Positions 22,080-27,194 of a stretch of 36,510 nucleotides of DNA are shown one piece after another. This DNA comes from an uncultured Bdellovibrionales bacterium. Its GTDB lineage: Bacteria; Patescibacteriota; Minisyncoccia; Moranbacterales; UBA1568. The stretch lies in NCBI GenBank assembly GCA_964459475.1, contig CAYWLN010000003.1:1-36510 (forward strand). Reading direction: 5' to 3'. A program made the translations under genes and the position numbers. Numbering within the stretch: position 1 is the stretch's first letter; the number at the start of each line of letters is the position of its first letter. The notes beneath the pieces are model-generated. The model worked only from the letters and a program-made list of their open reading frames with translations, had not been told where the DNA came from and made no database searches.

Positions 22080-22577
22080 ATGGCGAAGTTTGCAGAGCAG
22101 AGAGTCGGAGTGTTTGTCGATATCCAGAATATGTACTATAGCGCCCGTGTGCTCTATAGCAAGAAGGTGAATTTTAAGAATGTACTCCTCTCAGCCGTGA
22201 GTGACCGCAAGGCCATCCGAGCCTTGGCCTACGGCATCAAGACGGTGGAGGCGACTGAAGACAAGTTCTTTGAGGCCCTCGGCAAGAGTGGCTACGAAGT
22301 GAAGACTAAGGACCTTCAGATTTTTCACGATGGTTCCAAAAAAGGGGATTGGGACGTAGGTATCGCTATCGATGCCATCAAGATGGCCCCCAAGCTCGAT
22401 GTGATTGTGATCGTCTCCGGTGATGGTGACTACATCTCACTCGTCGAATACCTCCAAAACACCTATGGCTGTCGCGTTGAGGTGGTGGCTTTTGCTGAAT
22501 CAGCCTCAGCCAAGTTGATCGAACAGGCTGATGACTTCATCAATCTTTCTGATGACAAAAAGAAGTTCCTCATTTAA
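22080..22577 (+). CDS. NYN-domain (LabA-like) putative ribonuclease
   Basis: 165 aa. It contains VFVDIQNMYYSA near the N-terminus and IVSGDGDY (the Asp cluster of the NYN/PIN-like fold). Confidence 0.75.
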   Translation: MAKFAEQRVGVFVDIQNMYYSARVLYSKKVNFKNVLLSAVSDRKAIRALAYGIKTVEATEDKFFEALGKSGYEVKTKDLQIFHDGSKKGDWDVGIAIDAIKMAPKLDVIVIVSGDGDYISLVEYLQNTYGCRVEVVAFAESASAKLIEQADDFINLSDDKKKFLI

Positions 22578-25000: not shown

Positions 25001-25969
25001 ATGTCTTTATTTTCTTCTTCATCTCCCAAGGCACAGCCTCAAGAGACTATCCCTCTTGAAATTCGACAAGCAGTGATGGTTATGGGCGAATCAGTGAGTG
25101 CGCCTGCAGCCACTGCGAAGCCCGTAGGAAATAGCCCATTTCTTGATGGAGGGGCATCTACTCACCCCACACCACCAGTAGCAGCACCGACACTCGAGCC
25201 TCTTTTTCAAGAAGGAGCCCCTAAACCACCAACAAATAAGAAGCTTTTTCTCTGGGGAGGTTTGGGCATAGCAGTATTGATCGTGCTCGCTGGCATTGTC
25301 TGGTACGTCATGAGGCCTGTGGCGGAGGAAGTAGCTCCAGTGGAAGACGTTGTAGCGCTACCACAAACGACAATACAAGTGACGACCTCTGAGCCGGAAC
25401 CGGTTCCAGTGCTGCCATTTTCGCTGACGGGACCAAATTATCTCTCGATAGATACAGAAGCAGTTACCCCGGCTTCTTTCCAGACTCTTTTGGCTGAAAA
25501 GAAGCAAATTCTTCTCAATGCAGGCATCATTCAACCGGTAGAATTTCTTCTAACAGACAAGAATAACAACCCCGTGGCTTTCAGTCGGGTGGCTTACCTT
25601 ATGAATATCGAGCTCAGCCCTGCCTTTCTTGCGACTATCGCCGAGTCATTCTCGCTTTTTCTCTATAACGACCAGGGGAGAGTGATGTCTGGATTGGCCC
25701 TTACTTTTGGGACTGTCGAAGGGCCGACGCTTTTTGCCAAAGAGAAAGAGGGATTGTTCCCGTATGCGTTCCGTTCTTTTCTCTACGAGGGGATGGCAGT
25801 GCCCCGAGATGTCGTATTTCGTTCTGGTGTTTACAAGGAGCAACCAGTACGTTACGTCAATATTGATGATACGACACAGACCTCATTTGACTATGCCCTC
25901 CGCGGGACCACTTGGATGATTGGCACTACGAAGGAGACATTGCGGGCGATTCTCGATGCCAAGTTATAA
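25001..25969 (+). CDS. single-pass membrane protein, hypothetical
   Basis: The ATG at 25001 is preferred to the TTG at 24986, which lies inside the pnp terminator. The protein has a Pro-rich N-terminal region and one transmembrane segment (LFLWGGLGIAVLIVLAGIVWYVM). No family was recognised. Confidence 0.55.
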   Translation: MSLFSSSSPKAQPQETIPLEIRQAVMVMGESVSAPAATAKPVGNSPFLDGGASTHPTPPVAAPTLEPLFQEGAPKPPTNKKLFLWGGLGIAVLIVLAGIVWYVMRPVAEEVAPVEDVVALPQTTIQVTTSEPEPVPVLPFSLTGPNYLSIDTEAVTPASFQTLLAEKKQILLNAGIIQPVEFLLTDKNNNPVAFSRVAYLMNIELSPAFLATIAESFSLFLYNDQGRVMSGLALTFGTVEGPTLFAKEKEGLFPYAFRSFLYEGMAVPRDVVFRSGVYKEQPVRYVNIDDTTQTSFDYALRGTTWMIGTTKETLRAILDAKL

Positions 25970-26006
25970 TTTTGGCTTCATAAAAGCATTACTACCGTAT
26001 CAAAAA

Positions 26007-26029
26007 GAAGTCACAGACTTCTTTTTTTG
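26007..26029 (+). terminator. rho-independent terminator
   Basis: GAAGTC-aca-GACTTC followed by TTTTTTT. Confidence 0.75.
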
Positions 26030-26111
26030 TGGTCACGAGCGTGTGAAACAAACAAGCTGATGTGAAGTGCTCTGTTTGTGTTTGATTCAAGCGATTATTA
26101 CCAGTCACTGA

Positions 26112-26140
26112 TTGACTCGAGGGTAATTTTCTGCTATAAT
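26112..26140 (+). promoter_or_regulatory. near-consensus promoter TTGACT-N17-TATAAT
   Basis: -35 at 26112-26117, a 17-nt spacer, and -10 at 26135-26140. No ORF follows for about 620 nt. Confidence 0.65.
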
Positions 26141-26146
26141 TGACTT

Positions 26147-26733
26147 GTGATGTTGAAATTTCTTTGACAACTTGCTCTCTTCAACCGTACCGAACGGTGA
26201 AAGAACTCCCATCGCAATGCCCCCTCATTGTGACGGGGATTCTTTCACTGTTCAAGAGTCATAGCAATGTACTATGACCGCTCCGTCCTAACACGGAGAC
26301 TCAAACAAAAACAAAAAACTCCTGAAATATAATACATGCAGGAGAAAAACAAAAAGAAACAAAAAAACAGTTCTTTCAAATAGAGAGGCGTTGGCTACAC
26401 AGAGGCTGGAAAGCGTTCTTGCTCCTGTGTAGTCAATGACCTCACCCAAAAAAGGCTTCGCGCCAGAGAACGGTGAAGGGAGAAGTGACGAAAAAGTTAG
26501 GATCGTCGCGAAACTGCAAGTGCACAAAATACAGATCTCAATTGGATTATAGATGCTTCCTCACCCGTAGCTATATAACCTAGACATCTGTTGGCACATG
26601 CAACGTTCGGGCGTACAGCCAAATAATTTATTATCGGGCGATAGTACGCCCGGACACCAACATGTTTCTTAGACGGTGACCGGGTTAGAAGTAGCGTAGA
26701 ATAGAAACAGAACTCCCCACAGGGTGTTTTTTT
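26147..26733 (+). ncRNA. candidate large structured non-coding RNA (family not identified)
   Basis: Bounded by the promoter above and a terminator (AAC-t-CCC-caca-GGG-t-GTT plus TTTTT at 26711-26733). The track shows no plus-strand ORF of 60 aa or more. At least nine local Watson-Crick helices of 5-9 bp are present, including GTGAAAGAA/TTCTTTCAC (26197-26205 with 26240-26248), CTACACAG/CTGTGTAG (26395-26402 with 26425-26432) and GGGCGTAC/GTACGCCC (26609-26616 with 26644-26651). A-rich linkers lie at 26301-26318 and 26345-26368. Confidence 0.45.
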
Positions 26734-26769
26734 GTTGCCCAATTCCTCATTTCGGCGTAGGGTAGTGGT

Positions 26770-27159
26770 ATGAAACGGTTTCAACTCGCCTCTCCACTCG
26801 GCGCTCTCGGTGAGGAGCTGGCCTCCCGTTACCTCAAGGACAAGGGGTACCGGATTCTTGCGACCAATTATTGTAATGTAAAGGGGAAACGATTGGGGGA
26901 GATAGATATCGTAGCCGAGTATCAGGGGGAACTGGTGTTTGTAGAAGTGAAGAGTCGGCTCAGAGGCGCAGAAGGCTCTGCTCTCCCGGAGGCGGGTATT
27001 ACCAGAGACAAGCTGCGCAAATTGGCCCGTATTGCCGAGTGTTACCTCCGAGAGACGAAGCGTGAGAATACGCAGTATCATTTCGATGGGATAGCCATCC
27101 TTTATGACCCAATTCAGAAAAAGGCTCAGATACGCCACCTGGAGCACATATTTTTCTAG
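26770..27159 (+). CDS. yraN: YraN-family (UPF0102) endonuclease-like protein
   Basis: 129 aa containing GEELA..YL...GY.IL..N.....GEIDIVA.....LVFVEVK.R. Confidence 0.85.
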   Translation: MKRFQLASPLGALGEELASRYLKDKGYRILATNYCNVKGKRLGEIDIVAEYQGELVFVEVKSRLRGAEGSALPEAGITRDKLRKLARIAECYLRETKRENTQYHFDGIAILYDPIQKKAQIRHLEHIFF

Positions 27160-27194
27160 ACAACCTACCCAAAATTTGATATACTTTGAGTAAC
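27157..27194 (+). promoter_or_regulatory. promoter TAGACA-N17-(TGa)TATACT with conserved TTGAGTAAC downstream
   Basis: -35-like element at 27157-27162 and extended -10 at 27177-27185. The 18-mer at 27177-27194 matches 8584-8601 at 17 of 18 positions. Confidence 0.45.

Follow-up and report, generated by a model that had tools for sequence, protein, structure and literature searches.

The window analysed here comprises 36,510 nucleotides (nt) from an uncultured bacterium deposited under the name Bdellovibrionales (GenBank assembly GCA_964459475.1, contig CAYWLN010000003.1), in which the interval between a gene for a 327-amino-acid (aa) membrane protein and yraN holds a promoter, a succession of helices and a terminator. 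The original prediction had singled out this interval as an orphan transcription unit for a large structured RNA. We are highly confident that it is a real structured non-coding RNA gene of a new family, and consider it likely that the gene is independent, that it has a strong promoter, and that its product is a large non-coding RNA which functions through its fold and fits no described family. The host is a member of Candidatus Moranbacteria (Patescibacteria), an ultra-small bacterium of the Candidate Phyla Radiation (CPR); relatives of its ComM in a species-representative genome collection came from metagenome-assembled genomes (MAGs) of Candidatus Moranbacteria/Moraniibacteriota. PNPase and an NYN-domain protein are encoded farther 5′ of the RNA, and a DksA/TraR-type zinc-finger protein, LspA and ComM farther 3′. 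The resulting arrangement, pnp–membrane protein–RNA–yraN–dksA-like–lspA–comM, lies on one strand and its order is almost invariant among loci. Rfam 15 at gathering score found five tRNAs and no other family in the whole window.

Homologs were sought with a 661-nt query in blastn and nhmmer, by profile search, and by matching the exact pattern of the invariant 3′ core (TCACCC..TGTTGGNACANGC..CCAACA) to metagenome contigs. The profile search placed the element in about 80 genome or metagenome loci (L numbers below), 60 of them less than 96% identical to each other, and blastn and nhmmer matched about 40 of the 80 upstream of yraN–comM. The pattern scan returned 68 loci, of which about 40 were true full-length homologs and the rest fell in an IS3-type transposase open reading frame (ORF) or were random. 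Rifle (RIFCSP) and Crystal Geyser (CG_) samples, from places where Moranbacteria abound, were represented among the matches. At roughly 70–93% nucleotide identity the RNA contrasts with the flanking proteins, which share 30–65% of their amino acids among loci. Intergenic regions upstream of yraN in related genomes, whose comparison the original prediction had recommended, were thus strongly conserved, and they were rich in covariation. All covariation and conservation counts below refer to a 51-sequence MAFFT alignment of non-redundant homologs. Members range from 350 to 650 nt, the window copy measuring about 587 nt, and, within the sampling available, the family appears confined to Moranbacteria and related Patescibacteria.

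The near-perfect promoter that had been read at the 5′ end of the interval withstood this comparison. In a promoter scan TTGACT-N17-TATAAT scored 11 of 12, with a TG 5′ of the −10 element; TTGAC of the −35 and TGnTAnAnT of the extended −10 were invariant across the alignment, as was the U-run at the other end, and a promoter of like type precedes the distant copies in L082, L071, L049 and L062. The hairpin and T-run that had been proposed as a terminator before yraN went unflagged by a consensus terminator scanner, because the stem is weak and only 3–5 bp long, yet a short hairpin directly before six to eight U residues was present in 51 of 51 aligned homologs. Its stem differs in sequence between them (CCC/GGG, GGCC/GGCC, GCCU/GGGC, GACUC/GAGUC) and is weak throughout (−2.7 to −8 kcal/mol), making read-through into yraN plausible. 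With an invariant extended −10 promoter and a short terminator of its own, the element has the predicted outline of a self-contained transcription unit.

The region is non-coding. As had been claimed, some 590 nt pass without a plus-strand ORF of at least 60 aa, the longest between 26140 and 26740 being 45, 38, 36 and 30 aa. An argument that a small protein gene or a decayed pseudogene underlies the conservation could start from the mechanical ORFs of 30–79 aa found on both strands of the region, and from a median longest ORF of about 60 aa per homolog. Against it, each window ORF on either strand was frameshifted or stopped in 76–100% of 50 homologs, indels in the alignment were not multiples of three, variation was concentrated in compensatory pairs, and a Pfam search gave nothing relevant. 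No conserved small ORF explains the conservation, and we give this explanation practically no credence.

Folding energies and covariation both point to a structured plus-strand transcript. The plus strand had a minimum free energy (MFE) of −203 kcal/mol (z = −10.9; minus strand, z = −5.1), and plus-strand z scores against shuffles ranged from −5 to −10 in seven homologs. Helices were drawn by eye from the alignment, script-checked and then evaluated by pair-counting. Over 5574 cells, the 114-pair model gave 85.5% standard pairs, compared with 75.5% in column shuffles and 38–44% when partners were slid by 1–3 columns. Both sides changed in 80 pairs (59.5 in shuffles), compensatory cells numbered 588 (191 in shuffles), and the covariation score was 0.332 (0.170 in shuffles); 0 of 500 shuffles reached the observed values of these last two. 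G·U cells outnumbered A·C cells (472 to 221), indicating that the plus strand is the folded strand. Support was best for H2, H12 (98.5% paired), H13, H14, H3 and H1, the long hairpin; a search for stacked covarying columns that used no model recovered these six and the kissing loop described below, and nothing beyond. The predicted fold has two domains, a 5′ multi-helix domain in which a leader helix encloses H1–H4 and H6, and a 3′ domain made up of H8, H10, H13–H15 and H12 (Table 1).

Table 1. Positions of the RNA element, its parts and neighbouring features in the window.
Feature	Position	Strand	Description
NYN-domain (nuclease-like) protein gene	22080–22577		just 5′ of pnp
Upstream ORF, 327 aa	24986–25969		one predicted membrane span; Pfam family: none
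Hairpin and T7	~26007–26028		3′ of the 327-aa ORF
Sigma-70-type promoter	26112–26140	+	−35 TTGACT 26112–17; 17-nt T-rich spacer; extended −10 TGCTATAAT 26132–40
Predicted primary transcript, ~587 nt	26147–26733	+	start inferred from the −10 box, end from the U-run
5′ leader strand of long-range H7	26175–26188	+	pyrimidine-rich; closes the 5′ multi-helix domain
H1, long irregular hairpin	26192–26253	+	26192–205/26240–53, 26207–10/26236–39, 26212–19/26226–33
H2 hairpin	26258–26278	+	GUCAUAG/CUAUGAC, loop CAAUGUA; 93.5% paired; 7/7 pairs change on both sides
H3 hairpin	26281–26298	+	CUCCGU/ACGGAG; 95.7% paired; kissing loop CCUAAC
L3:L8 kissing loop, 5′ half	26287–26292	+	CCUAAC; pairs with GUUAGG 26496–26501, ~200 nt away
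A-rich linker 1	26303–26318	+	AAACAAAAACAAAAAA; single-stranded, nearly invariant; many invariant A and C columns
H4 hairpin	26319–26344	+	CUCCUG/CAGGAG, AU-rich loop; 6/6 pairs change on both sides
A-rich linker 2	26345–26369	+	AAAAACAAAAAGAAACAAAAAAACA; nearly invariant
Invariant GUUCUUUC	26370–26377	+	probably pairs with AGAGAAC 26465–71 (H5); invariant columns, so no covariation
Clade-specific inserted hairpin	26383–26445	+	CUACACAG/CUGUGUAG, 26395–402/26425–32; alignment columns 487–557
H6 mini-hairpin	26454–26464	+	GGC-UUCGC-GCC; 100% paired; third pair CG:47, GC:2, UA:2
Purine-rich strand AGAGAACGGUGAAGGGAGAA	26465–26484	+	partner of the leader (H7) and of GUUCUUU (H5)
H8 hairpin	26485–26509	+	GUGACGA/UCGUCGC; loop GUUAGG 26496–501; 6/7 pairs change on both sides
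3′ domain core	26516–26601	+	H10 26516–22/26595–601; H13 26531–35/26587–91
3′ domain core, inner helices		+	H14 26544–50/26575–80; H15 26555–57/26569–71
H12, long hairpin	26606–26654	+	26606–15/26645–54 and 26618–20/26637–39; AU-rich apical part
Invariant CACCAACA	26655–26662	+	complementary to UGUUGG 26589–94
Variable 3′ tail	26663–26711	+	0–70 nt across the family
Weak intrinsic terminator	26712–26733	+	short hairpin (CCC/GGG core), then U7 at 26727–33
UPF0102/YraN gene	26770–27159		3′ neighbour of the RNA
Promoter-like site	27157–27185		TAGACA-17-TATACT with TG, just 5′ of the dksA-like gene

Most helices that the original prediction had named recur in this model. The 9-bp stem 26197–26205/26240–26248 with its inner CAATG/CATTG is part of H1, and those at 26258–26278, 26281–26298, 26319–26344, 26487–26507 and 26609–26651 correspond to H2, H3, H4, H8 and H12, with compensatory changes. 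The hairpin at 26395–26432 is real but belongs to a lineage-specific insertion, shared by just 7 of 51 sequences (a different one follows linker 1 in other clades). The helix at 26649–26684 forms in only about half of the members, where it is optional and competes with the base of H12, and one proposed at 26184–26198 is probably non-native, clashing with two helices that have better support. The long-range elements, namely the leader-to-middle helix, the L3:L8 kissing loop and H10/H13, go beyond that prediction.

The 5′ domain is closed by the leader helix H7, in which CUCUCUUC pairs with 26475–82 and ACCGU with 26470–74, a pairing also present in the MFE structure. Duplex energies back this helix in most sequences: leader and partner had a median of −16.3 kcal/mol, versus −11.3 kcal/mol for shuffled leaders, with z below −2 in 24 of 51 sequences. 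H7 is re-matched in the L054/L055 clade (GAUCUUCUA:UAGAAGAUC and CCGCUU:AAGCGG) and weakly supported in a short-leader clade. H1 was 86–88% paired, with both sides changed in 18 of 26 pairs, and bears a C-rich apical loop (CCCCCU); H4 was 72.6% paired, in a poorly aligned region. The sequence GAACGGUGAA occurs as a 10-nt direct repeat (26192–26201 and 26468–26477), each copy heading a purine-rich strand, with the pyrimidine-rich H1 3′ strand and the 5′ leader as partners, an arrangement that hints at an ancient internal duplication. An alternative register joining the H1 3′ strand to the second copy over 11 bp was rejected because the diverged L054/L055 copies each covary with their own state-A partner; a pairing of GUUCUUUCA with 26198–207 was also rejected, one side being invariant while the other varies.

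A kissing loop of H3 with H8 is predicted to clamp the 5′ domain to the 3′ domain. Its six columns were 99% paired, with pair types that include CG:35/UA:14, AU:37/GC:14 and AU:48/GC:3. It occurs across clades as CCUAAC:GUUAGG, UCUGAC:GUCAGA and UUCUGGU:ACCAGAA, and in distant homologs as CCGAC:GUCGG (L082, L071) and CCAAC:GUUGG (L080). The five counted helices of the 3′ domain core were 88%, 100%, 94%, 84% and 92% paired; the fully paired one is H13, with pair types GC:32/UA:12/CG:7 and GC:40/AU:11, and H10 covaries in L062 too (GUAUGUAC with GUGCAUGC). H12 was 87–99% paired, both sides having changed in 11 of 13 pairs, and an H12-like hairpin is retained in L082, L080 and L071. The optional helix of the 3′ tail joins 26675–84, in window numbering, to 26649–58, and a G–C to A–U exchange is visible in it among the window, L056 and L025 (alignment columns 845–935). 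In L108 (107–730) and L015 the tail carries a tandem GUGAUAA repeat of about six units (alignment columns ~860–900).

The A-rich linkers, which had first drawn attention as striking spacers, proved nearly invariant in sequence itself, beyond mere composition. They flank H4, and the linker 1 motif is also present in the distant homologs L082, L080, L071 and L049. Other invariant elements are GUUCUUUC, the CUCACCC loop of H15 (26560–66), the strand CUGUUGGCACAUGC at 26588–601, and CACCAACA, for which a pseudoknot with UGUUGG is possible, the invariant columns allowing no covariation. The 3′ end of linker 2, AACAAAAAAACA, is a perfect 12-nt complement of 26725–36 (the U-run and following bases), and may sequester the 3′ U-tail. 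Mimicry of, or antisense pairing with, rRNA was considered for CUCACCCG, which is complementary to 16S GGGUGAG, and for CACAUGCAAG and AAGUCGGAAUCG, which are identical to 16S segments; it was rejected because 9-mers shared with Escherichia coli 16S and 23S rRNA were at shuffle level.

Shorter, distant versions of the RNA (350–440 nt) were found in L082 and L080, in the order pnp–ORF–RNA–dksA-like, and in L071, in the order RNase J–membrane protein–RNA–dksA-like. All keep the promoter type, leader helix, H3, A-rich linker 1, H4, H8 with its kissing loop, the H12-like hairpin and the terminator, and are without H1, H2 and the CUCACCC loop. A profile of the three matched the main family weakly but collinearly, and L049 and L062 are intermediate forms. 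These short and intermediate forms indicate that the family reaches beyond the range of sequence searches and has a definable core.

Several further observations concern the collected loci themselves. About 28 metagenome contigs matched the core pattern only through a conserved IS3-type transposase ORF (translation ...DQGWQYQH...), among them L090, L096, L097, L103, L104, L106, L109, L111, L112, L114, L117, L122, L123, L129–L131, L134, L136, L137, L141, L143, L144, L146 and L149; in L146 the transposase ORF is inverted at both ends of a 5.8-kb contig. A phage association was discarded, the single viral-contig match to the pattern being due to chance. Identical or near-identical copies of the window locus occur in L002 (GCA_013558375.1, JACCDG011438373.1), L083 (JACCDN010339085.1) and L119 (JACCDG010595442.1), whose assemblies have contig numbers of about 339,000 to 1.4 million and look like bulk metagenomes or host-associated sequence, not binned genomes. 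MAGs titled 'uncultured Bdellovibrionales', 'Pseudobdellovibrionaceae' or 'Gammaproteobacteria' (L003–L007, L011, L013, L020, L021, L065, L070, L078, L080) encode a ComM that is 58–90% identical to that of Moranbacteria/Patescibacteria, so that their titles look taxonomically wrong, and many of them show the full pnp–RNA–yraN–comM synteny.

The neighbouring genes suggest that this RNA is connected with RNA metabolism. In every lineage checked for it, the second gene 5′ of the RNA encodes PNPase or RNase J. In L071, RNase J (1042–2802) stands in PNPase's place, and the RNA-decay enzyme thus keeps one relative position in both types of arrangement; the NYN nuclease, the nuclease-like YraN and KsgA complete this setting. 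A conserved upstream partner protein was considered and rejected, as the 327-aa protein of the window and the 560-aa ORF of L082 show no similarity; the neighbour in L071 is a different membrane protein of 219 aa.

The same gene order raises a cis-acting alternative, in which the element is a giant riboswitch- or attenuator-like leader that controls terminator read-through into yraN–dksA–lspA–comM. In most genomes yraN starts 2–90 nt 3′ of the element, on the same strand and without a recognisable promoter of its own, and in the window nothing promoter-like separates the U-run from yraN; the weakness of the terminator stem would suit such control, and the optional tail helix that competes with the base of H12 could be a switch. 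However, in L062 (complete genome CP175956) two convergent genes, one for a methyltransferase, come next after the RNA and yraN is 3 kb away, and the downstream gene differs among lineages, yraN being absent 3′ of the RNA in L024, L082, L080 and L071. The segment from core to terminator is anywhere between 0 and 70 nt long and shows no conserved anti-terminator pairing, and an element of 350–650 nt with a long-range kissing loop far exceeds known leaders. The dksA-like gene has a promoter-like site of its own, and downstream genes may therefore not rely only on read-through from the RNA promoter. L014 (1–1054) keeps yraN–dksA–lspA–comM (ComM 72% identical) with a protein-coding gene in the RNA's slot, which suggests that the RNA is elsewhere or lost in that Moranbacteria genome. 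The convergent genes of L062, the missing yraN, L014 and the variable tail together favour an RNA gene that stands alone and whose read-through into yraN is incidental, and we regard control of yraN by a leader as improbable.

Several points weigh against an independent gene for a folded RNA, beginning with the proximity of a yraN that has no recognisable promoter of its own in most genomes. Transcription, the 5′ and 3′ ends and abundance are predicted from sequence alone, and any function is wholly inferred. H7, H4, H8 and the terminator were only 54–76% paired in the MAFFT alignment, and H5 and the CCAACA:UGUUGG pairing would depend on invariant bases. The globular part of the upstream membrane protein is predicted to lie outside the cell, and the protein is not conserved in distant lineages. 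Hfq, CsrA, KhpA, RnpA and SmpB queries gave no tblastn match in the collected sequences, which is uninformative.

Under the reading that we prefer, that of a stand-alone gene, the RNA would work in trans, as a compact RNA or as the scaffold of a ribonucleoprotein (RNP), to which at least one housekeeping protein would bind; a single-strand-RNA-binding factor of RNA metabolism is a candidate partner. Its functional surfaces would be the two A-rich linkers, the CUCACCC loop and the strands CUGUUGGCACAUGC and CACCAACA. The weak terminator would probably let a fraction of transcripts continue into yraN–dksA–lspA–comM, and the complementary end of linker 2 could shield the 3′ U-tail. We put forward this specific scaffold or protein-binding mechanism tentatively, as a proposal that may well prove wrong. 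Action without protein, as an RNA-only homo-oligomeric assembly or a new large ribozyme, would also suit the size class, the ornate architecture, the invariant unpaired strands, the conserved loops and the long-range kissing loop, and OLE, ROOL and GOLLD reportedly form homo-oligomers in a cryo-EM study (PMC12286853). Nevertheless, no palindromic conserved loop for obvious self-kissing was found, the sole kissing pair is intramolecular by covariation, and the context suggests no chemistry or substrate; we consider protein-free action unlikely.

Apart from rRNA, RNase P RNA, tmRNA and introns, bacterial RNA classes of more than about 300 nt are few, and OLE, GOLLD, ROOL and HEARO/omega RNA each hid unexpected biology. 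The genomes of Patescibacteria are tiny and have little DNA to spare. The persistence of a 0.6-kb non-coding gene with an invariant strong promoter throughout an order-level group, and of shorter versions outside that group, speaks for an important function. A bolder possibility, which we hold with more doubt than the scaffold proposal, is that this is the first large ornate RNA class specific to the CPR, part of the core genome, highly expressed and with a function new for any RNA; an RNP organiser for RNA decay or ribosome upkeep, an RNA-only assembly and a new ribozyme would be examples. The roughly 60 diverse sequences are enough for a covariance model, for MAG annotation and for the start of structural work, with a set of hypotheses at hand (two-domain fold, covarying kissing loop, invariant A-rich strands), and annotation would remove a recurrent 'unannotated gap' from Moranbacteria genomes.

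The original prediction had seen no signature of RNase P RNA, tmRNA or signal recognition particle (SRP) RNA and could not assign the element to OLE, ROOL, GOLLD or HEARO by eye. Comparison with known RNAs bore this out, and none of the membership tests placed the element in any of these families. The suggested Rfam search, which gave no family at gathering score, was repeated permissively (E ≤ 10) over 25900–26850 and returned only chance-level microRNA and small RNA matches, as it did for the divergent members L054 and L082. No description of this RNA was found in the literature searched.

A rival explanation is an extremely diverged housekeeping RNA, above all RNase P RNA. RNase P RNAs of the CPR have diverged, and many score below threshold: for 10 of 35 circular CPR genomes, Lui et al. 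(2021, PMC8172020) had to lower the RF00010 thresholds to 5 bits and refold by hand. By Rfam, the window lacks RNase P RNA, tmRNA, SRP RNA and 6S RNA alike. Like class A RNase P RNA, the new RNA looks housekeeping-type, single-copy and strongly conserved, with two domains and a length of several hundred nt, and a few stretches of 9–12 nt resemble CR-II and CR-III. Against the RF00010 consensus, which was obtained with its structure through E. coli rnpB, GUGCACAAAAUACAG resembles the P11/J11-12 segment and CUCACCCGGAGC resembles CCACCCGGAGC. These stretches occupy other structural positions, however, and the P4 core is missing. For the window copy, L054 and L082, the match lists extended to scores as low as about 14 bits and did not include RF00010. 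The universal P4 strands GGAAAGUCC and ACAGAANCCGGCUUA do not occur in the family consensus or the distant copies: neither CR-I (GAGGAAAGUCCGG) nor CR-V (ACAGAANCCGGCUUA) was present in the 51-sequence consensus, L082 or L071, and a regex scan of all collected DNA found no paired CR-I and CR-V. A match to GGAAAGTCCGG in L031 was set aside as lying inside a coding gene. P1-type pairing of the ends is likewise lacking: the 5′ leader has its partner at mid-molecule (26470–82), and a terminator occupies the 3′ end. CACCC is placed within a hairpin loop, and no conservation is seen for the GGAG needed for P5.

The other housekeeping candidates fit no better. For tmRNA, ARAGORN on the window and Rfam found none, and the RNA has no tRNA-like end and no conserved ORF; the SRP RNA test failed, and the multi-branched shape is unlike SRP RNA. 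6S RNA is a single irregular rod of about 185 nt (150–200 nt) with a large central bubble. Rfam gave no 6S match, and the new RNA, of 350–650 nt, is three times the size of 6S RNA, with a covariation-supported fold that is multi-branched and includes a kissing loop. The likeness to 6S RNA lies in the gene arrangement, as in the ssrS–ygfA operon, where a stand-alone RNA gene stands directly 5′ of a protein gene with probable read-through, and the context here adds a DksA-like RNA-polymerase-binding factor encoded just 3′ of the RNA. We judge a diverged RNase P RNA, tmRNA, SRP RNA or 6S RNA to be very unlikely.

The closest likeness is to the large ornate RNAs. Models of OLE (RF01071), ROOL, GOLLD and HEARO/IscB omega RNA (RF02033) gave no match at E ≤ 10 in the three members searched. 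The new RNA shares with these classes a size of about 0.4–0.8 kb, many covarying helices, conserved unpaired nucleotides and long-range tertiary pairing, but their hosts are Firmicutes, rumen and lake organisms and phages, whereas it belongs to Patescibacteria and has an invariant promoter and a terminator of its own. Like OLE, it lies among housekeeping genes, beside a membrane-protein gene, and is probably partly co-transcribed with its neighbours; its 327-aa neighbour, with a single predicted span, seems unlike the small multi-pass OapA encoded by oapA beside OLE. Unlike HEARO it has no adjacent IscB/TnpB-type nuclease, its neighbours being pnp, the membrane-protein gene, yraN, dksA-like, lspA and comM. 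Unlike ROOL and GOLLD it lacks a tRNA or prophage setting, sits in fixed housekeeping synteny and gave no true viral contig in the 3′-core scan. To our knowledge, long sequence-invariant A-rich linkers are not a described feature of any of the four.

For those linkers a functional analogy, and only that, is offered by CrcZ, a protein-sequestering small RNA with A-rich Hfq/Crc sites. The two RNAs have in common conserved single-stranded (AAN)n-like tracts (AAC AAA AAC AAA, two of them here) between hairpins, a strong promoter and their own terminator; unlike CrcZ, the new RNA has only two such tracts, set in a large rigid fold, and neither Hfq nor Crc was identified in the collected sequences, an uninformative negative. 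We place the RNA among the large ornate bacterial non-coding RNAs, a descriptive class, as distinct from a homology family, with which it shares a length of more than 300 nt, the absence of coding capacity, covarying helices and conserved unpaired nucleotides.

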